Shown here in pieces: positions 44,562-52,573 of a stretch of DNA of 52,573 nucleotides. The notes under the pieces are model-generated. The model saw nothing but the letters and a program-made list of their open reading frames with translations, was not told where the DNA came from and did not search any database. The stretch covers positions 1 to 52,573 of IMG/VR virus record IMGVR_UViG_3300045988_103312. The stretch is one strand, 5' to 3'. Positions within the stretch are counted from its first letter, which is position 1, and each line of letters starts with the position of its first letter. This DNA is from a virus. Both the position numbers and the translations under genes were made by a program.

Positions 44562-46001
44562 GTGGGAAAATGCGCGAGATGTGGAAGACACGGGCTGTTT
44601 GTCCGCGTCAGCAAGGAGAGCGGATTGTGCAAAGTCTGCGAATACACTGAGGCCGCGGATAAGGCCGAGGCGCGGGCGCGGCAGAGTGACGCGCTGCTGC
44701 AGGAGGCGATGCGTCAGGCCCAGACAGAGGCCTATCAGGCGCTGGAGCATCAGACCAAAGAGCTTGAGCGAAAGAGCGCAGATTGCCAGAATGAACTGCG
44801 TGATCTAACCGCACGGCGTGACGCGCTCGCAATGGAGAACGCCGCCGCGCAAAGCAAGCTCACCACGGCGATATCGCGGACGGAAAAGCTCAAATATCTG
44901 GCGCAGAGCATCAACGCCGCGCTGGAAGCGACGACTCGCGGAGAGAGCGTCCCGGAAATCAAGGACTTGGAGGAGCTTTTGCCCGAGAATGACTTGAACT
45001 GCCTGACGGTTAAGACGCTTGCCGCGAAGTATCGCGAGACGCGGAAGCAGATCATCGCCGTATGCAAGGCGTATGAATCCAATTACGAGACAAAGACAAT
45101 CCGCGCGCTGTATCGGCTGATGGTGCTTGGCCTTGAGGCGGAGCTGGAAAACGTGTTGTATACGCTGCGCTTCGGTACGCTGGACAAGGCGATTGCGGAT
45201 ATTCGCACGTTGACGAGCAAGTACTACACCATCGCGATAGACGGCAATCAGACGATTGCGCCCACGCTGAGGCGATTTATCGCCCAGATTGAAAGCCTGT
45301 ATCTCAAGACCGTAGACATTGAGTATGAATATTACGTCAAGCGCGAGCAGGCCAAGGAAGAGCAGCGCGCCATCAAAGAGCAGATGCGGCAGGAGGCCGA
45401 AGAGCGCAAGCAGCTCGAAGCCGAGAAAAAGCGCGTCGAGGCCGAGGAAAAGAAATATCAGCAGGAGATCGACCGAATCGTGGCCGAGATGAACAAGGCA
45501 CACGGCGAGGAACTGGCGGCACTGCAGCGTCGACTCGATGAGATGAACGGGCTGATGAGCAAGGTTGAAGAGAAGAAGGCCGAAATCGTCAATCTGCAAA
45601 ACGGCAAGGCCGGCACGGTGTATATCATCAGCAATATCGGCGCGTTTGGCGACAACGTATTTAAGATCGGCATGACGCGGCGCCTGGAGCCGCAGGAGCG
45701 CGTGGATGAACTCGGAAGCGCGTCGGTGCCGTTCCCGTTTGACGTTCACAGCTTTATCTTCAGCGACGATGCGGTCGAGCTGGAAAATGATCTGCACAAA
45801 GAGCTGGATTCCCGGCGCGTCAATAAAATCAATCGCCGGAAAGAGTTTTTCAACGTCGATGTGGGAGAGCTGCGGGAAATCGTGGAGCGAATCGACCCCA
45901 CCGCGTCCTTCCGCGAAACGGCGTTGGCGGAACAGTACAGACAGAGCGTATCTATGGCGAGAGAGCGTATGGACGATAAGTTTGAGGAGGAACAGGCATG
46001 A
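44562..46001 (+). CDS. Zinc-ribbon / DUF4041-like coiled coil / T5orf172 (GIY-YIG-superfamily) domain protein
   Basis: GTG start 8 nt after GGAGG; CARCG...CKVCE; C-terminal GTVYIISNIGAFGDNVFKIGMTRRLEPQERVDELGSASVPFPFDVH...LENDLHKELDSRRVN...EFF. Confidence 0.75.
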   Translation: MGKCARCGRHGLFVRVSKESGLCKVCEYTEAADKAEARARQSDALLQEAMRQAQTEAYQALEHQTKELERKSADCQNELRDLTARRDALAMENAAAQSKLTTAISRTEKLKYLAQSINAALEATTRGESVPEIKDLEELLPENDLNCLTVKTLAAKYRETRKQIIAVCKAYESNYETKTIRALYRLMVLGLEAELENVLYTLRFGTLDKAIADIRTLTSKYYTIAIDGNQTIAPTLRRFIAQIESLYLKTVDIEYEYYVKREQAKEEQRAIKEQMRQEAEERKQLEAEKKRVEAEEKKYQQEIDRIVAEMNKAHGEELAALQRRLDEMNGLMSKVEEKKAEIVNLQNGKAGTVYIISNIGAFGDNVFKIGMTRRLEPQERVDELGSASVPFPFDVHSFIFSDDAVELENDLHKELDSRRVNKINRRKEFFNVDVGELREIVERIDPTASFRETALAEQYRQSVSMARERMDDKFEEEQA

Positions 46002-46318
46002 AGATTTTGTATCGCGACCACCGAGGTGCTCTCGATGAAGCAATGAAGACCATGCGCGAATATCGTACCGTTGACGAGCTGAAGGACGGCCTTGCGGCGG
46101 CTTACAATAAGCTGCGCCACGATCTCGGTTATCGCGGCGACGCGTTTGCCGCGGAGGACGTCTCCATCAGCGACGACCTCGGCCCCGATGACCGCATCGG
46201 CTGGCCGAATACGCACTATGTCTGCATCCGCCGGATGGGCGACGACGACTTTGTGGCAAGGTTCGGATCGCCGCAGGCCATCGGTTTCTGCGTGTTTTTC
46301 GATGGAAAGGAGGAATAA
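45998..46318 (+). CDS. Hypothetical 106-aa protein, translationally coupled to the T5orf172 gene
   Basis: ATGA overlap at 45998-46001; no motif. Confidence 0.6.
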   Translation: MKILYRDHRGALDEAMKTMREYRTVDELKDGLAAAYNKLRHDLGYRGDAFAAEDVSISDDLGPDDRIGWPNTHYVCIRRMGDDDFVARFGSPQAIGFCVFFDGKEE

Positions 46319-46321
46319 CCC

Positions 46322-47860
46322 ATGATCTGCGCCATGTACCTGCGCAAGTCCCGCGCGGACTACGAGGCCGAAGCCCGCGGCGAGGGGGAGACGCTGGCCA
46401 AGCATCGCGAAACACTGCTGGCCGTCGCAAAGGCCCGCGATCTGACCGTCACCGACGTATTTTCCGAACTTGTATCCGGCGACACCATCGCCGAGCGCCC
46501 GGAGATGCAGCGGCTCATGCGTGCCGTGGAGCGCGGCGATTACGACGCGGTGCTCTGCATGGACATTGACCGCCTCGGGCGCGGCGACGGAGCCGACCAG
46601 TCCGCCATCCTCAAGACGCTCAAGTACTCGGACACCATCGTCATCACGCCTTACAAGGACTACAACACCCGCCGGGAGATGGACGAGGAATTTTTTGAGT
46701 ACTCCCAGTTTATCGCCAGGTCTGAATACAAGCGCATCAAGCGCCGCATGTGGGCAGGCCGCGTCGCCTCCGTCAAGGAGGGGAAGTGGATCAGCCCCAA
46801 GGCGCCGTTTGGCTATCGGCGCGTTCGCATTGAGCCTGGGCGCGGCTGGACGCTGACTCCAGAGCCCTCCGAAGCCGAAGCGGTGCGCAGCATGTTTGCC
46901 TGGTATGCCTCGGGCGAGTGCGGCAAAAATACCATTGCCCGGCGCATCAACGATATGGGCTTCCGGACTTATGGCGGGAAAAACTTTGATCCGTCGGAAA
47001 TTCGATCAATACTGACCAATCCCGTCTATATTGGCAAAATTCGCTGGAATTACCGCCATCAAAATATCGAAATGAAGGACGGCAAGGAGATCGTCACCCG
47101 CCCGCGGTCATCTGAGTGTCTTGTCTCTGACGGCCTGCATCCGGCCATTGTCGACAAGGATGTTTTTGACGCCGTTCAGCGGTGCTTTACTAGTCTCGGC
47201 GACCCATGCGTACCCTTTCGGCGCGAGATGGTCAACCCGCTCAGCGGTCTGATGCACTGCGCCGAATGCGGCCGGGCCATGCACATGGTCCCAGAATATA
47301 AGCGCTACGGAGTGGACGCTACCTATCGCTGCCGGAAAATAGGCGGCTGCGCCACCACAACCATTGAAGCGAAATACGTATATGACGCGCTGCTTTTCGC
47401 GTTGAGGCAATGGTCAACGTATGGCGATAGTGATGGTTATGCGCCGGATTGCGCTGCTCCTGTCAATGATACGCTGCCGCAAATTCGAGCGGTTTCCGCG
47501 CAGATCACCCAGCTGCGCAATCAATTATCCAAGCTCCAAGATTTGCTTGAAACTGGCGTATACAGCGCCGATACCTACGTCGAGCGCAGCAAGGTCATCA
47601 ATGACCGTATCGCCGCTGCGTCAGCCACACTGGCCGAACTTCGTCAGTCTCAGCCCGTCGACGAGCACGCCGCCATCATCCGGCTGAAGCCTAAGATCAG
47701 GCATTTGCTCGACACGTGGGATGATTCAACACCCGCCGAAAAAAACGCGCTGCTTCGGACAATTGTCCGGGAGATCAAGTACAAAAAAACGCGGCGGTGC
47801 TTCCGAAACGAAAACCCCGCCGAATATCTTACGTTGACTATCTATCCCATTGTGGATTAA
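46322..47860 (+). CDS. int: Large serine recombinase (integrase)
   Basis: Resolvase N-domain (YLRKSRAD...catalytic Ser, DIDRLGRG), recombinase domain, zinc ribbon CAECGRAMH...CRK, C-terminal coiled coil. Confidence 0.92.
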   Translation: MICAMYLRKSRADYEAEARGEGETLAKHRETLLAVAKARDLTVTDVFSELVSGDTIAERPEMQRLMRAVERGDYDAVLCMDIDRLGRGDGADQSAILKTLKYSDTIVITPYKDYNTRREMDEEFFEYSQFIARSEYKRIKRRMWAGRVASVKEGKWISPKAPFGYRRVRIEPGRGWTLTPEPSEAEAVRSMFAWYASGECGKNTIARRINDMGFRTYGGKNFDPSEIRSILTNPVYIGKIRWNYRHQNIEMKDGKEIVTRPRSSECLVSDGLHPAIVDKDVFDAVQRCFTSLGDPCVPFRREMVNPLSGLMHCAECGRAMHMVPEYKRYGVDATYRCRKIGGCATTTIEAKYVYDALLFALRQWSTYGDSDGYAPDCAAPVNDTLPQIRAVSAQITQLRNQLSKLQDLLETGVYSADTYVERSKVINDRIAAASATLAELRQSQPVDEHAAIIRLKPKIRHLLDTWDDSTPAEKNALLRTIVREIKYKKTRRCFRNENPAEYLTLTIYPIVD

Positions 47861-47883
47861 TTTTTTGCAGAGAATAGAGACAA

Positions 47884-47915
47884 CCTTGTGGTCGCGATTC
47901 ATCGCGACCACAAGG
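47884..47915. other. Candidate attP core: 15-bp perfect inverted repeats around a TC dinucleotide (also a possible bidirectional terminator)
   Basis: ccttgtggtcgcgat tc atcgcgaccacaagg, 24 nt after the integrase stop. Confidence 0.45.
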
Positions 47916-47932
47916 CTCCCACTATTATTTTG

Positions 47933-48253
47933 CTACTTCCAGCCATCGATCATCGCCTTAACCTCGGCGGTCTTGGCGATGAGGTCGTTGTGGATGGCTT
48001 CCCACGCGGCGATCATGCCGTCGGCGTAGGCGGGCTTTTGCTTGTACTCCTCGGAGGCCTTGTAGCCCTCGATCAGCTTCTTCACCACGGCGTGGCCGTT
48101 GGTGTTGAAATTGATGTGGGCCGCGGCCATCTCGCGATACCACGCGGCGGCCTCGGGATGCTCCGCCTTTAGGTCGTAGGCCGTGCGGATTTTGCCTCGG
48201 GCCTCCTCGATGTTTCCGGCGATGTCGTTGCTCAGGCGCTTGATGATCTTCAT
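47933..48253 (-). CDS. Hypothetical all-helical 106-aa protein (cargo operon gene 5)
   Basis: Track ORF; no motif. Confidence 0.6.
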   Translation of the reverse strand: MKIIKRLSNDIAGNIEEARGKIRTAYDLKAEHPEAAAWYREMAAAHINFNTNGHAVVKKLIEGYKASEEYKQKPAYADGMIAAWEAIHNDLIAKTAEVKAMIDGWK

Positions 48254-48265
48254 ATCTGCGCCTCC

Positions 48266-48700
48266 TTAGGCCAGCTTGACCGCGCTGGCGCATACGTGGC
48301 TGACCGTTCCGGCAGCGCCGCTCACGCGCGCGCTGATGACGGGCTGGATCGCGCAGCAGGTGGCCAGCCGCACCACCGTCTCCACGTGCTGGGTGATTTC
48401 GCCTCCTGCCGCCACGGTATCCGTGGTCATCGCGCAGGGCATGGGCGTGGAGCCGTTGTAGAGCTGGAGCACCTGAGCGCCCGCCGCGCCGGGGGTGCTG
48501 GTCACGTCAAAACTGACGCGGAACAGGCCGCCGGCGTTGATTCGGAATCCGCCGCTCTGGGTGGTGATGGAGCAGCCGGTGTCGGTGATCTGGGTGCCGA
48601 GCACGTTGATGGTCGTCCCCTCGGCGGTGTAGGTCTGCAAAGCGGCGTTGTACGCGGCCTGCGCAGACTTCTGGTGGATGTTTTTGCAATTACAGGACAT
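48266..48700 (-). CDS. C1q/TNF-like (BclA C-terminal-domain-like) protein (cargo gene 4)
   Basis: GGFRINAGGLFRVSFDVTSTPGAAGAQVLQLYNGSTPMP...VVRLA beta-sandwich pattern; GGAAGGAG SD. Confidence 0.5.
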   Translation of the reverse strand: MSCNCKNIHQKSAQAAYNAALQTYTAEGTTINVLGTQITDTGCSITTQSGGFRINAGGLFRVSFDVTSTPGAAGAQVLQLYNGSTPMPCAMTTDTVAAGGEITQHVETVVRLATCCAIQPVISARVSGAAGTVSHVCASAVKLA

Positions 48701-48783
48701 ATTATTCTCCTTCCATTTACAGCGCCCGCCCGGCGCATGGCTCGGACGGGCGCAGGCGCTGTTATAACGCGTATGTCAGTTGG

Positions 48784-49482
48784 TTACGCGACGTAACCGG
48801 CTCCGCAGCTTCCGCAGCCCTGCGCGGCGTAGGGGTTGTAGCCCGACTGATACGGGCTGCACGTCAGGTACGCCGGCACAGGGGTCTTGTTGATGGCCGA
48901 GAGCAGCGTGTTGGTCTGCGACAGCGTGCCGAGCTGGAGCTGGGCCGCCTGCAGGTTGTCGCGCAGCTCCTGCATGGTGTTGGCGTTGATGAGCGCGCGG
49001 GTGGCCTCGCCCTCCGCGTGGATCGCCGTCTTCACGTCGCAGCAGCACTGCGCCTGCTGGGCCTGCATGGCCTGAGCCTGCAGGGCCGCGTCGTAGCGGT
49101 TCTGCATGATTTCCTTCTGGGTGGTGCAGCAACACTGCTGGGCGGCGAAGCGATTCTCCATGATGGATTTGTCGATGCCGGCCATACCGAGCTGGGTGTT
49201 GTAGCGGTTCTCCAGCACGTCGCGCTGCACGCCGAACTGGTCGCGCATCAGGCCGTTCTGGTTGCGGAGGATTTCGGCGGTGTTAAAGCCGTCGGCCATC
49301 TCGCCGCGGGTGAGCGCGCCCTGAAGGCCGGCATTGCCGTTGCCCCACAGACCGCCGCCCATCATGCCGAATACGAGGAAGAGCACGACGATCCAGAAGA
49401 AACCGCCGTCGCCGAAGAAGCCGTCGCAGTTGCGATCCTTATTGGTCACGGCCGCGATGTCGGCAAGGGTCATATTGTCCAT
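48784..49482 (-). CDS. Cys-rich single-pass membrane protein with ENRY-type repeats (cargo gene 3)
   Basis: TM FFWIVVLFLVFGMMGGGLWG; LENRYNTQ / MENRFAAQ / MQNRYDAA; CCC x2; GCGSCGAGY tail; AAGGAG SD. Confidence 0.65.
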   Translation of the reverse strand: MDNMTLADIAAVTNKDRNCDGFFGDGGFFWIVVLFLVFGMMGGGLWGNGNAGLQGALTRGEMADGFNTAEILRNQNGLMRDQFGVQRDVLENRYNTQLGMAGIDKSIMENRFAAQQCCCTTQKEIMQNRYDAALQAQAMQAQQAQCCCDVKTAIHAEGEATRALINANTMQELRDNLQAAQLQLGTLSQTNTLLSAINKTPVPAYLTCSPYQSGYNPYAAQGCGSCGAGYVA

Positions 49483-49537
49483 TTAGGTCACTCCTTTTTG
49501 ATATTTATCCTCAGCCCGTAGCGCTCCGGGCAAAGAA

Positions 49538-49756
49538 TCATCCCTTGAAAAATCCCTGCATCTGCTCGGCGATCTGCTTCGCCTGCTCAAGCTGCTGGGC
49601 GTTGATCTGGCCGCTTTGCAGCATCTCGTTGATCTTCTGCTGGGCCGCCTGGGGCGACCACATCTGCCGAAATTGCCGGAACTGCTGAAGCATCTGCATC
49701 CCCGGCATCTGGGCGTTGGCCTGTTTGGCCATCATGCCGATGAGAGGGTTGCTCAC
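49538..49756 (-). CDS. Gln/Met-rich 72-aa protein (cargo gene 2)
   Basis: GMQMLQQFRQFRQMWSPQAAQQKINEMLQSGQINAQQLEQAKQIAEQMQGFF; ATGA-type overlap with gene 1. Confidence 0.6.
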   Translation of the reverse strand: MSNPLIGMMAKQANAQMPGMQMLQQFRQFRQMWSPQAAQQKINEMLQSGQINAQQLEQAKQIAEQMQGFFKG

Positions 49757-50181
49757 AGGTTGATCCCTCCCAGCGCGTTTTCAAGCTGCGACAACTTGTC
49801 CGACACAGCCTTGATCTCGTCCTTGGTGGCAAACTGCGATACGTCGATCTGGGGCGCGGGCGCAGCCTGCGTCTGGGCCTGCGGGTCGATTTCCAGCAGC
49901 CGGAACGACTTGAGCGTCGCCGTGCCCATGCTGTCCACGGCCTTGACGTGGATGACCGGGTCGTTGTTGTCCATCATCCACGCCGTCTGTCCGGGCTGGA
50001 CGATGTGGTCGCGCGCGCCCTGCACACCGTTGACGTAAATCCACGACACATTGCTCTGCGCGCCGCTGTTCTGCGGCGGCACCTGTTGCGTCATTTGCAT
50101 CATCTGCGGCTGAGGGGGCATGTAGTTGGCGTTGAAATATCCCGGCACAGCGGGCTGGGGAAATGGGTAGTTATAAGCCAT
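49753..50181 (-). CDS. P/Q/M-rich N-tail + small beta domain protein, weakly GerQ-like (cargo gene 1)
   Basis: ATG 50181 six nt after GAGGTG; MAYNYPFPQPAVPGYFNANYMPPQPQMMQMTQQ...; GARDHIVQPGQTAWMMD. Confidence 0.6.
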   Translation of the reverse strand: MAYNYPFPQPAVPGYFNANYMPPQPQMMQMTQQVPPQNSGAQSNVSWIYVNGVQGARDHIVQPGQTAWMMDNNDPVIHVKAVDSMGTATLKSFRLLEIDPQAQTQAAPAPQIDVSQFATKDEIKAVSDKLSQLENALGGINL

Positions 50182-50361: not shown

Positions 50362-50402
50362 AAAAATGAAAATACCGGCATCCCAATTACAGGAATGCCG
50401 GT
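50362..50402 (-). terminator. Intrinsic terminator of the three-gene moron
   Basis: Minus strand accggcat...atgccggt stem followed by attttcattttt. Confidence 0.65.
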
Positions 50403-50415
50403 GCTTGTTGATTAC

Positions 50416-50745
50416 TTAGCTTTTGAGGCTGTCCTCTATCGCTTTCTGCATCATTGCAATTGCAGTGTTCTTATATACGGGTTTCCAGCCCCAGTAGTCA
50501 TCTCCTTTGACCATTTCATATTTATTGTGTACCATATACCATCCGCCATCAAATTGATCTCGGTATTCGGCCTCCAGTTCTTCCGCCGATGCATCATTCC
50601 CCAAGTCTCTCCACGTAAAAGTTACCTTGTATTTGTTCCCTCTGCCGCTTGCCCACTCAAACGCTTTTTCTGCATTGTCAAATACACCACTGTCAAAACA
50701 CAATCCATCCCGGTTTATGAGGTCTACTCTAATTGCACCCTTCAT
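50416..50745 (-). CDS. Hypothetical 109-aa protein (moron gene 3)
   Basis: AAGGAGGAAAAG SD; AT-rich; no motif. Confidence 0.65.
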   Translation of the reverse strand: MKGAIRVDLINRDGLCFDSGVFDNAEKAFEWASGRGNKYKVTFTWRDLGNDASAEELEAEYRDQFDGGWYMVHNKYEMVKGDDYWGWKPVYKNTAIAMMQKAIEDSLKS

Positions 50746-50764
50746 TTTCTTTTCCTCCTTGCTC

Positions 50765-50974
50765 CTATTGCATCAATTCGTCCATTGTACAATGCAACGC
50801 ATCTGTAAGTTTCAGCAACGCTACCCCATTCGGCGTGTGTTTCCCAGTTTCCCAGCGGGCAATCATTGCTTGGGTAGTGCCGATCGCTTCTGCGAGCTGC
50901 TTTTGTGTCAGCCCCAGCGCGATACGACGCTGGGCAATCAGGCTGTTGTTGGTAACCCTTGGGTCAGTTCGCAT
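50765..50974 (-). CDS. XRE-family HTH regulator (moron gene 2, Aca-like)
   Basis: ATG 50974 nine nt after GGAGG; RRIALGLTQKQLAEAIGTTQAMIARWETGKHTP. Confidence 0.8.
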   Translation of the reverse strand: MRTDPRVTNNSLIAQRRIALGLTQKQLAEAIGTTQAMIARWETGKHTPNGVALLKLTDALHCTMDELMQ

Positions 50975-51533
50975 TGGCACCTTCCTCCTTTCTGCGACAA
51001 TCAGGTTTATTCAACGCAAATCTTGTCACGGTATAATAAGGCGCCCAGTTCCCGATTTCGTCAATCTTGGATTCATATTCACGCTTACATTCTAACGCTT
51101 TTTCTTTTTTGTCATACACTCCAACAATCGGGGCTTCATCATTGAGAGTGCCAGGATTGCCGTGGCGCATAACTACGTATACAGCAACTTCTTCATCAAT
51201 TCCATCGTTTTCGGCCGTCTCCGCCATGTCTTCGGTTGCTTCGGTTTCTTCGGGCACGAGGATACTAATGATTGTATCAAGCTGGGCAGCGCATTCTTCG
51301 CCGTGCCCCATGCTGCGAGTGGCAATTTCATCGTTCGCAAGGTCGATCCACATCTTGCCATTAAAGCGATCATAACGATTAACGGCGAATCTTCCCGGAA
51401 ATTCATCACAATTGGCAGTCCATGCATCCACAGCAGTGAGGTCAATATATAGTCTCTCTATTCCATTTTTCCTCCAAAGACGAGCCAGTTTATTTTCGAT
51501 CAGCGCCTCGATAACTTTTTTAGTGTACTTCAT
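50964..51533 (-). CDS. Hypothetical 189-aa protein (moron gene 1)
   Basis: GGAGGG SD; AT-rich; acidic central tract EETEATEDMAETAENDGIDEE. Confidence 0.65.
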   Translation of the reverse strand: MKYTKKVIEALIENKLARLWRKNGIERLYIDLTAVDAWTANCDEFPGRFAVNRYDRFNGKMWIDLANDEIATRSMGHGEECAAQLDTIISILVPEETEATEDMAETAENDGIDEEVAVYVVMRHGNPGTLNDEAPIVGVYDKKEKALECKREYESKIDEIGNWAPYYTVTRFALNKPDCRRKEEGANAN

Positions 51534-51598
51534 GATTTCCCTCCACTTTCTGCGGCTCTGCCGCCGGTCGCTCTTGCTTCCCTCAACCTTGTGACTAT

Positions 51599-51671: not shown

Positions 51672-51706
51672 AAAAGAAAAAAGGCCGGCGGATTGCTCCA
51701 CCGGCC
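51672..51706 (-). terminator. Intrinsic terminator ending the late/lysis operon
   Basis: Minus strand ggccggtgg agcaatc cgccggcc followed by ttttttctttt. Confidence 0.75.
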
Positions 51707-51713
51707 TGAAAGC

Positions 51714-51968
51714 CTACATACATTTATCTACCGCCTGCATCACCAGCTCGATGCGCGGGACGATCTGCCCGCGCAGGCGCTTGGAAACGGCGCTCCTGTC
51801 CATGCCCACCGCTGCGGCGATGTCCGCATAGTCCATGCCCCAGACGAGGCGAGAGGCGGCGATATGCACATCTGACGGCGCGAGCCGCGCCTCGATGATG
51901 AGGCGCGACATCACCGACGAGGTCACGCCGTCAAACTGCGGGTACTCGTCGTATTTCATCATATGCAC
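51714..51968 (-). CDS. Small sigma-70 region-4-like HTH protein
   Basis: WGMDYADIAAAVGMDRSAVSKRLRG; last gene before the late terminator. Confidence 0.5.
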   Translation of the reverse strand: MHMMKYDEYPQFDGVTSSVMSRLIIEARLAPSDVHIAASRLVWGMDYADIAAAVGMDRSAVSKRLRGQIVPRIELVMQAVDKCM

Positions 51969-51980
51969 GGCCTCCCGGGG

Positions 51981-52340
51981 TTATTCCTCGGGAGGTTTTT
52001 CGTCTTCGGCTTTGGTTTCCTCCTCCCGTGCTTTCGTTTCGCTGGGGGAGTAAGTGTGCAGGGCATCCATGTTTTCTTTAATAATTGCCTCGATTTCGCT
52101 GCGATCCACGCTGTAGCCGCGCTGACTGAGCTGGTAGATTACCCAGTCCAGTTTCTCAGAGCCGTTTTTGGCTCCGTAGAGCTGTTCGGCGGCAAAGACC
52201 ATCGTCTTGATGGTCGCCTTGAGCAGCGCCTGCTGCTCGTTGGTCGTCCGCGCCTTGATCCACGGGATCAGCTTGTAGGTAATCAGCACCGCCAGCAGCG
52301 CGATGATTGCCTGGATGATGGGGGTCAGATTGATGTTCAT
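51981..52340 (-). CDS. Holin (LL-H-like family)
   Basis: N-terminal TM MNINLTPIIQAIIALLAVLITYKLIPWI, then soluble charged domain, as in LL-H-type holins; lysis cassette position. Confidence 0.65.
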   Translation of the reverse strand: MNINLTPIIQAIIALLAVLITYKLIPWIKARTTNEQQALLKATIKTMVFAAEQLYGAKNGSEKLDWVIYQLSQRGYSVDRSEIEAIIKENMDALHTYSPSETKAREEETKAEDEKPPEE

Positions 52341-52358: not shown

Positions 52359-52573
52359 CTATACCCCTTTGATGATGTAGCCCACCGCCACGCCGACGGC
52401 GGCCAGCACGACGTATTTGACGATCTCAAAGGCCAGTTTCTTCCATTTGTCTCCCGGCTCCCGCTCGATCACGTCGATGCGCTTGCCCAGCTTGTCCACC
52501 TTGCCGTCGATGCTGTTAATCGTAGACAGGATATTTTGCTGAGCGTTGGATATGTTTTGGATGTCCAGCAGCA
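52359..52573 (-). CDS. XhlA-like protein, 3' part (continuation of the ORF starting at nt 188; last 55 nt duplicate nt 1-55)
   Basis: ...INSIDGKVDKLGKRIDVIEREPGDKWKKLAFEIVKYVVLAAVGVAVGYIIKGV, stop TAG 52359-52361. Confidence 0.6.
   Translation of the reverse strand, partial: LLDIQNISNAQQNILSTINSIDGKVDKLGKRIDVIEREPGDKWKKLAFEIVKYVVLAAVGVAVGYIIKGV
52519..52573. repeat. Terminal direct repeat, second copy (identical to nt 1-55)
   Basis: Read directly. Confidence 0.95.

Follow-up and report, generated by a model that had tools for sequence, protein, structure and literature searches.

The virus record IMGVR_UViG_3300045988_103312 of IMG/VR, analysed here over its whole length of 52,573 nucleotides (hereafter, the window), carries on its minus strand five closely spaced genes, a to e (50181->47933), that an earlier interpretation made from the letters alone (the sequence-only reading) had taken for a cargo operon with products that resemble spore-coat or exosporium proteins. 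We find that these genes are almost certainly one copy of a conserved, syntenic and modular accessory cassette of gut phages. Members of the cassette family probably serve the lytic cycle of the phage and do not act on spores, and we tentatively favour a more specific interpretation, namely that the cassette specifies a late, lysis- or egress-linked assembly that is anchored in the membrane by protein c.

All five open reading frames (ORFs) were found where the sequence-only reading had placed them. Gene a (49753-50181, minus strand, 142 aa) starts with an ATG at 50181, with AGGTG 6 bases upstream, and matches phrog_21718 (E = 4e-13); b (49538-49756, minus, 72 aa; phrog_22984, E = 4e-10) starts with GTG and has a 4-nt overlap with the stop of a; c (48784-49482, minus, 232 aa) matches phrog_16490 (E = 4e-17); d (48266-48700, minus, 144 aa) encodes a C1q/TNF-type jelly roll; and e (47933-48253, minus, 106 aa), which encodes a helical protein, is the last gene of the cassette. 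Judged by their relatives, a to e are genuine genes rather than chance ORFs, because PHROG families are matched by three of them (a, b and c), and many homologous clusters exist for a, c and d (206, 4304 and 104, respectively, at 90% identity, with 904 clusters at 50% identity for c in an exhaustive phmmer scan). The motifs that had been quoted for the products are all present in the translations: the P/Q/M-rich head and GARDHIVQPGQTAWMMD in a; ENRY/ENRF/QNRY, QQCCCTTQ, QAQCCCDVK and GCGSCGAGYVA in c; and the MSCNCKN start of d. Protein b consists of 25% Gln, c contains 10 Cys and d contains 7 Cys (4-5% Cys in c and d). Among the five proteins, only c has a hydrophobic segment (residues 27-45, mean Kyte-Doolittle hydropathy 2.1), and no N terminus in the set looks like a signal peptide.

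We identified 53 cassette loci among 185,579 species genomes that were scanned, and IMG/VR added 80 more. What had been read as a cargo operon is one copy of a cassette found in more than 130 loci; the search for genomic co-occurrence of the five-gene set that the sequence-only reading had proposed shows that the set does occur elsewhere. In tblastn searches with c, homologues were found in Clostridium perfringens phages, in lemur and rodent gut viruses and in human-gut contigs labelled 'Bacteriophage sp.', each preceded by a phrog_21718 gene and a small ORF. Among the first 56 genome and phage loci, which were searched with iterated hidden Markov models (HMMs), a is immediately upstream of c in 47 and d immediately downstream of c in 30, with b present between a and c in 12 and e present after d in 10; the order a-(b)-c-d-(e) and the location of the genes on a single strand are invariant across these loci. 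Clustering of the neighbouring genes added four families, denoted z, d2, f and g, and the order of the cassette is z - a - (b) - c - (d or d2) - (e, f, which is DUF7841, or g). The main arrangements among 137 loci are z-a-c-d2-f (21 loci), z-a-c-d (13), z-a-b-c-d-e (9), z-a-c-d-f (9) and z-a-c-d-g (9). The window conforms to the definition of the cassette, with a upstream of c and a jelly-roll protein directly downstream of c on the same strand, and its c protein shows all the features of the c family, that is, the transmembrane (TM) segment, the helical domain with CCC...C, the PxPAYxTCSPY motif and the CGC tail.

The usual first gene of the cassette, z, encodes in the window (51714-51968, minus strand) a small regulator of 84 aa of the sigma-70 region-4/helix-turn-helix (HTH) type, which scores against the HMM of the neighbour family that is conserved upstream (E = 5.5e-6) and, weakly, against Pfam HTH_31/HTH_3. 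Members of the z family (67-116 aa), which sit directly upstream of a, match Sigma70_r4 and GerE-type HTH domains; in the close relatives of the window, z is 99-100% identical. The d slot can be occupied by d2, a Cys-rich beta protein of 111-154 aa with the start MxCxxC, and the e slot by f (Pfam DUF7841, PF25223), which replaces e in many cassettes, or by g, a small protein with a TM segment and a coiled coil. We considered the possibility that the alternative occupants of a slot are divergent homologues and rejected it both for d and d2 (hhalign probability 0.4%) and for e and f (hhalign probability 3%). In several loci (L075, 10001-11946; L041, 4483-6303; also L026, L027 and L038), the c gene is found in two HMM-matching pieces about 1.1-1.2 kb apart, which suggests an insertion (an element of the intron/homing-endonuclease type) or a frameshift inside this core gene.

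The cassette spans phages of sporulating and non-sporulating Firmicutes, Negativicutes and Bacteroidota, and viruses assigned to archaea. Its carriers include temperate phages with tyrosine or serine integrases, among them phages of Firmicutes; on long bacterial contigs, the cassette is found at prophage edges adjoining host genes, and prophage cassettes are present in Phascolarctobacterium (545-kb contig) and Megasphaera (205-kb contig). Other carriers are C. perfringens phages of the phiCP39-O group, which have no annotated integrase and come from screens for virulent phages, and crAss-like phages of the families Suoliviridae, Steigviridae and Intestiviridae (for cr109_1, E = 2e-26 for c and E = 1e-36 for f). 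The Bacteroides carriers were isolated from plaques; the cultured phage C3_41T2LP matches both c (E = 9e-28) and f (E = 5e-7), and the cultured phage BF503P4 gives a clear match to f (E = 4-7e-16) and a weak one to c (E of about 3-5e-5). The records of Caudoviricetes vir335 and vir215 name Methanomassiliicoccales as the host, and the depositors themselves annotated a gene of vir335 as phrog_16490. After c, the crAss-type cassettes encode a protein that can be aligned with the d2 family (hhalign probability 69%, E = 4e-5); for the a-like gene of the crAss-like and Bacteroides phages, homology to a is not demonstrable, with the coiled coil alone aligning (E = 0.005). Bin labels of metagenome-assembled genomes (MAGs) are unreliable host evidence for contigs of 35-47 kb, a caveat that leaves the long contigs, the cultured phages and the crAss lineage unaffected; the nearest genome matches of the window are MAGs labelled uncultured Oscillospiraceae bacterium and Candidatus Faecivicinus. 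The recorded sources are always faeces, gut, rumen/caecum or sewage. In crAss-like phages, database labels call c a 'spike protein/glycoprotein' or 'outer capsid protein/viral fiber' and f an 'RNA polymerase sigma factor/ubiquitin-like' protein (for example, in L143, 4980-6601); profile searches against the PDB gave no support for these labels, which appear to be weak remote-homology transfers.

The cassette is usually located directly after holin or endolysin genes or inside the lysis cassette. Within up to four genes upstream of 61 dereplicated loci, endolysins and holins are the commonest identifiable genes (PG_binding_1, 5 occurrences; Amidase_2, 4; ELLD, 3; Peptidase_M15_3, 3; Peptidase_M15_2, 2; Holin_LLH, 3), followed by tail-fibre genes; downstream of the cassette lie integrases, CI-type repressors, replication genes or host genes. 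The contig of the window is circular, given that at least its first 50 bases (1-55) recur at its end (52519-52573), so that the holin (51981-52340, minus; Pfam Phage_holin_6_1) and the endolysin (209-1201, minus; Pfam ELLD, PG_binding_1 and SH3_3) are neighbours across the junction and form a lysis cassette directly upstream of z. The order on the minus strand is tail genes, endolysin, a 46-aa ORF, holin, z, a low-GC insert, a to e and then the convergent recombinase. The operon had been described as separate from the lysis module, which is true only in the lineage of the window, where z and a are separated by 1.2 kb of inserted DNA (in the closest relatives, the insert is variable and about 2-3 kb long); in other relatives (L005, L065, L066 and L075), z abuts a. 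In crAss-like phages, there is no prophage-edge slot to account for the position of the cassette, and the lysis linkage is still there: the gene order is holin - LysB/FtsL-like - f - c - d2-like in cr109_1 and holin - endolysin - HTH - x - c in cr116_1, and in cr1_1 the cassette lies between the holin and an L,D-transpeptidase endolysin.

The genome of cr109_1 (L152, 11608-49003) also bears on the timing of expression. In the structural and lysis block that follows its tRNA-Gln, 24 of the 31 genes contain in-frame TAG (121 TAG per 12,185 codons), compared to 4 of the 25 genes upstream of the tRNA. The recoding, from TAG to Gln, is almost entirely limited to this block; c contains 2 in-frame TAGs, and a Q-rich gene that follows it, provisionally called a-like, contains 9. 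Recoded genes, which depend on a suppressor, are generally late genes. The cassette of cr109_1 is among the suppressor-dependent genes, and we infer that it is expressed late.

Comparison of the window with its relatives shows that the cassette is inherited as one block with the lysis genes. The endolysin, the holin, z and a to e are kept at 88-100% identity while the integrase is exchanged, and in relatives that keep a to e at 94-100% identity, the serine recombinase is replaced by other integrases. The block of nucleotide homology, 50377->47937, extends from the promoter region to the stop of e; in L058-L062, homology starts at 50377 or 50279, and with most relatives it ends at 47937. Single genes are nevertheless swapped within the block: d is only 58-60% identical in L058 and L059, next to a and c that are 99% identical, and a is 41-50% identical in L064, next to a d that is 98% identical. 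The whole cassette also behaves as an indel. The C. perfringens phages vB_CpeS-17DYC and phiCP13O are 94-98% identical; the former (L057, 31193-34096) carries 2.9 kb with a, b', c, d2 and g, in place of which the latter (L153, 29147-30517) has 1.4 kb of unrelated DNA, with none of a, c, d2 and g, between flanks that are 97-98% identical.

In the window, the description of a to e as a discrete, transcription-unit-like block beside the integrase is borne out: terminator-like hairpins flank the block, and a promoter-like site precedes it. On the minus strand, one such hairpin follows z (51682-51707; 11-bp stem and a T run) and another follows the insert (50402-50374), the latter being succeeded by a weak promoter-like site (50363-50336) at the start of the conserved cassette block; a third hairpin follows e. 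The insert (50416-51533, minus) has a perfect sigma-70 promoter of its own (TTGACA-17-TATAAT, 51627-51599) and a GC content of 48-50%, compared to about 60%. It encodes a 189-aa protein with a weak match to DUF7336, a 71-aa XRE HTH protein (Pfam HTH_3) and a 109-aa ORF. Its content is different in every close relative, nucleotide homology breaks at 51537 and 50377, and it is not part of the conserved cassette; the region between z and a looks like a hot spot for small morons. On the other side, the cassette converges with a large serine recombinase (46322-47860, plus strand; Pfam Resolvase, Recombinase and Zn_ribbon_recom). The sequence-only reading had placed the operon next to attP, the phage attachment site; the operon does adjoin the recombinase gene, and for attP itself there is only a perfect palindrome (47882-47917; 16-bp arms, 4-nt loop, no T run) between the stops of e and the recombinase, just beyond the end of the homology block, which could be a bidirectional terminator or a candidate for the attP core of the serine integrase. 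Further upstream on the plus strand, 44562-46318 encodes a 479-aa protein with a long coiled coil and a C-terminal T5orf172/MUG113 (GIY-YIG-like) domain, followed by a 106-aa ORF and then the recombinase; this protein is present in some relatives only (94% identical in L064) and could be a nuclease-type accessory or defence gene.

The cassette proteins combine membrane, coiled-coil and jelly-roll elements, and no catalytic domain was found in any of them. In protein c, the one TM helix and the richness in Cys, both pointed out in the sequence-only reading, are features of the whole family: across 54 dereplicated members, c has an acidic N-terminal tail (mean net charge -2.2), a single Gly-flanked TM segment that starts near residue 27, a Q-rich helical region with a CCC triplet (117-119 in the window; 81-91% conserved) and C148 (91%), and the PxPAYxTCSPY motif followed by a G/Y/N-rich tail that ends in CxxC/CGCGC (85-87% conserved), with a median of 9 Cys. 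The AlphaFold2 model of a comprises a disordered N/Q/P/Y/M-rich head (1-42), a beta domain of about 50 aa (predicted local distance difference test, pLDDT, about 90) and a C-terminal coiled-coil helix (120-137) that resembles trimeric coiled coils such as YadA. A Foldseek search with a found no match in the PDB at E of 1e-3 or better, and its matches in BFVD are uncharacterised phage proteins only, almost all of which come from assemblies of uncultured viromes; their labels are sipho-, podo- or myovirus. Protein b is helical and is indeed rich in Gln and Met, as had been noticed.

For d, the C1q/TNF-type fold like that of the C-terminal domain (CTD) of BclA, which had been guessed from the letters, is supported by the AlphaFold2 model, an all-beta jelly roll with pLDDT of 91.9 and a predicted template modelling score of 0.84. 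Of its 187 Foldseek matches in the PDB at E <= 1e-3, which also include C1QL and EDA-A1, the top ones are ExsF, BxpB, ExsFA and BclA-CTD (E from 9e-8 to 1e-6, template modelling scores of 0.65-0.72), and the next, nearly as good, are C1q-like proteins, EDA/APRIL, TNF, cyanophage tail-fibre domains and PRD1 P5. The match of d to Pfam BclA_C (PF18573) is below the cut-off (19.8 bits, E = 7e-4, against a cut-off of 38), and ten more distant homologues of d carry a precomputed match to this family. Sequence-profile searches of a, c, d, d2, e and f against the PDB gave nothing significant: the best match of d was C1q-like 3 (E = 0.98), that of d2 was FimA-like (E = 0.002), and e had weak ferritin/rubrerythrin-like or designed-helical matches only (E >= 0.01). 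There were no NCBIfam matches for the cassette proteins; among the PADLOC defence families, a to d had no matches and e reached 14.4 bits to the candidate PDC-S67. In Pfam, d2 matched no Ena/DUF3992, CotY-type or other family. For c, no match to known spanin or holin families was found in Pfam, NCBIfam or PDB sequences, and the cassette contains no gene for a lipoprotein (o-spanin).

In the interpretation that we tentatively favour, the cassette would be produced late in the lytic cycle in the infected cell, probably under the control of z. Protein c would be a single-pass membrane anchor, with the Cys-bearing helical domain and the CGC tail probably located in the cytoplasm; a (a coiled coil, probably trimeric), b, a putative trimer of d, and e would dock on c as soluble partners, and the Cys-rich termini would link the partners via metal or disulphide bridges. 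The membrane-bound assembly would then act at egress, in the timing or control of lysis or in the release of particles, with no remodelling of spores. In temperate phages, the position at the junction of the lysis genes and attP would simply place the cassette at the edge of the prophage. We favour this interpretation because linkage to lysis genes is the only genomic context that survives across phyla, because the cassette is co-inherited with the lysis genes, and because all its products lack export signals and c has the gross architecture of bitopic lysis proteins.

Several observations weigh against a role in lysis or egress. None of the cassette proteins is homologous to any lysis protein, a precedent in lysis is lacking for the C1q/TNF jelly roll, which is a typical fold of virion fibre tips, and d combines such a fibre-knob-like fold with allele swapping. 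The TM flanks of c give only a weak positive-inside signal. The terminator-like hairpins and the promoter-like site of the window set the cassette apart from the holin transcript, as would be expected of genes expressed from the prophage, and the site behind the lysis genes is, in temperate phages, also where morons generally sit. In some phages, the cassette is not next to lysis genes at all: about 3.5 kb of small genes lie between them in the C. perfringens phages, and it is recombination, dUTPase or antirepressor genes that precede the cassette in C3_41T2LP, cr124_1 and csAssE-Sib. The argument for late expression comes from a single crAss-like genome combined with a published generalisation. 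Furthermore, the indel between the near-identical 17DYC and phiCP13O shows that the cassette is dispensable for plaque formation and so is not needed for lysis as such. Dispensability, the non-adjacent cases, the isolating terminators, and the fold and swapping of d favour instead an optional virion structure or a membrane function expressed from the prophage.

The former of these alternatives, in which a, with its trimeric coiled coil, and the d or d2 knob would form an optional fibre or decoration of the virion that adjusts host range, adhesion or the stability of the particle in the gut while b, c and e help to assemble or anchor it, appears rather unlikely to us. Speaking for it, the fold of d matches fibre knobs of phages and viruses, namely cyanophage A4, the short tail fibre CBD of A-1(L) and PRD1 P5 (E from 5e-6 to 2e-5), d has a weak match to the tail-fibre family phrog_16053, the C-terminal helix of a is like those of YadA and other trimeric coiled coils, and the single-gene swaps (d in L058/L059 and a in L064) follow the pattern of receptor-binding proteins (RBPs). 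The cassette often comes after tail-fibre or RBP genes, in cr109_1 it lies in the recoded structural and lysis block, and its distribution, including the archaea-assigned viruses, tracks the gut habitat rather than host phylogeny. Against it, there is a TM segment in c and a regulator dedicated to the set, several phages carry the cassette outside their structural operon, and the carriers are labelled sipho-, podo- and myovirus, so that there is no obvious common attachment site; among the 44 records hit by tblastn with c of cr109_1, the structurally solved crAss001 is not present. Across seven close relatives, d alleles do not track tail-fibre alleles, as they would be expected to if d were a host-range determinant tied to the RBP. 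A moron expressed from the prophage, or early, that acts on the host membrane from within the cell in superinfection exclusion, defence or takeover, with c as the anchor and d or a providing specificity, likewise has a low probability. It would account for the classic slot at the lysis-int junction, with the prophage edge abutting host genes, for the flanking hairpins and the promoter-like site inside the conserved block, and for the dedicated regulator and the accessory indel behaviour, and allele swapping would be consistent with an arms race. It is less easily reconciled with co-inheritance with the lysis genes rather than with a lysogeny module, with the presence of the cassette in phages without an integrase and in the late recoded block of a crAss-like phage, and with the PADLOC search, in which only e gave a match, of 14 bits; low-complexity Q-rich and Cys-rich structural-type proteins would also be unusual for exclusion systems. 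Quite improbable, in our estimate, is a habitat-linked module of gut-anaerobe phages that crosses domains, in which late, self-regulated genes would produce an exosporium-like, Cys/Gln/Tyr-rich, cross-linkable assembly from a membrane anchor (c), a knob of the C1q/TNF or another jelly-roll type and a coiled-coil adaptor; its Cys clusters could make it responsive to redox conditions, so that it would set or cross-link once the cell contents meet the lumen, and it might then govern when lysis occurs, or hold progeny particles in place, coat them or make them clump. If it existed, such a module would be a previously unrecognised step of egress or persistence that is specific to anoxic gut ecosystems. 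We consider it similarly improbable, and slightly more so, that the proteins are released through the holin and lysis and act outside the cell, for example by covering receptors on cell debris, by making particles or cells adhere to one another or by binding host mucosa. Holin-dependent release has precedents in PblA/PblB of the Streptococcus mitis phage SM1 and in clostridial toxins, and the missing signal peptides, the location beside the holin and endolysin genes, the use of the C1q/TNF fold as a common binding module and the restriction to gut samples would all fit; but the case is purely inferential, c is membrane-anchored, and such a high Cys content is unusual for exported proteins of Firmicutes.

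The role proposed in the sequence-only reading, lysogenic conversion by which the spore or envelope of the host would acquire proteins like those of the coat or exosporium, is very improbable. In its favour, the best structural matches of d are the exosporium proteins listed above, the abundance of Cys in c and d2 and of Q/Y in a and b recalls cross-linked coat proteins, the absence of signal peptides is as in coat proteins made in the mother cell, z belongs to the same broad HTH class as GerE, and spore formation is established or possible for several hosts (C. perfringens, Oscillospiraceae). The spore-surface interpretation nevertheless fails for the whole family, because hosts include non-sporulating, Gram-negative (Negativicutes and Bacteroidota) and archaea-assigned lineages, and because some carriers are not temperate and lack an integrase. 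The weak resemblance of a to the coat protein GerQ is not supported: Pfam Spore_GerQ gave no match to a when E values up to 1 were admitted and none to 51 diverse relatives with a limit of 0.1, and the GARDHIV motif of a is confined to the subfamily of the window. A promoter of the sporulation type was also not found, there being no sigmaK, sigmaE or sigmaF/G consensus upstream of a, in what is a weak test with Bacillus consensus sequences. The Foldseek scores of ExsF and BclA are barely above those of C1q, TNF and phage knobs, and we do not assign the cassette to the exosporium functional class (ExsF/BxpB/BclA).

The sequence-only reading was right that the gene set lies outside every described system. 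A search of the literature on DUF7841, the three PHROGs, phage exosporium proteins, the C. perfringens and Bacteroides carriers and lysis-linked cassettes retrieved nothing on this set. What we describe is larger than one-off cargo: a self-regulated cassette of four to six genes across thousands of gut phages, spanning bacterial phyla, crAss-like phages and archaea-assigned viruses, the breadth of which points to a step of the gut-phage life cycle (egress, particle persistence or host manipulation) that is absent from current models. Cultured carriers (vB_CpeS-17DYC, PMQ04 and C3_41T2LP), together with phiCP13O as a natural cassette-less relative, allow direct tests. Establishing the function would put a name to PHROGs 16490, 21718 and 22984 and to DUF7841, and would correct the 'spike protein/viral fiber' and 'sigma factor/ubiquitin-like' labels in crAss-like phages.

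Comparison with known systems reveals partial likeness to several of them. PHROGs 21718, 22984 and 16490 and DUF7841 contain a, b, c and f, respectively; all four are listed as 'unknown function', and their linkage as a cassette is not recorded there. To GerQ of the Bacillus subtilis spore coat, a is similar in its Q-rich N-terminal region and a short G-(A)-R-D-H-I motif, which, however, is not conserved across the a family, and the Spore_GerQ profile is not matched. With ExsFA/BxpB and BclA-CTD of the exosporium of the Bacillus cereus group, d shares the fold and, with stand-alone ExsF/BxpB, the approximate size; it differs in its low sequence identity (14-17%), in having no collagen-like region and in being encoded by phages, including those of non-sporulating hosts. 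Cys-rich spore-surface proteins that self-assemble include ExsY/CotY, CdeC/CdeM and the Ena subunits with their N-terminal Cys connectors. The cassette proteins are likewise small, lack signal peptides and are rich in Cys at their termini (CGCGC in the tail of c, MSCxC at the start of d and d2), which suggests a covalent or metal-bridged assembly; in Pfam, c and d2 match none of these families, and the cassette hosts are not restricted to spore formers. In gross architecture, c, which combines a TM segment close to the N terminus with about 180 aa of helical domain and with conserved Cys, is similar to the i-spanins Rz/LysB and to the T4 holin T, and it is likewise encoded beside holin and endolysin genes, following a LysB/FtsL-like gene in cr109_1. 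Unlike these proteins, c is dispensable, has no o-spanin partner and no sequence or profile similarity to them, and is present in phages of monoderm hosts, in which spanins have no role. Finally, moron and conversion cassettes are found at the lysis-attP junction of temperate Firmicutes phages, as exemplified by the staphylococcal sak/scn/chp and PVL genes and the toxins of streptococcal prophages. The cassette occupies the same slot, has its own promoter-like and terminator-like signals, lies at the prophage edge and shows the same indel behaviour; unlike morons, it is a conserved multi-gene set that is shared by thousands of phages across phyla, including non-temperate ones, and that in crAss-like phages is part of the late structural and lysis block.

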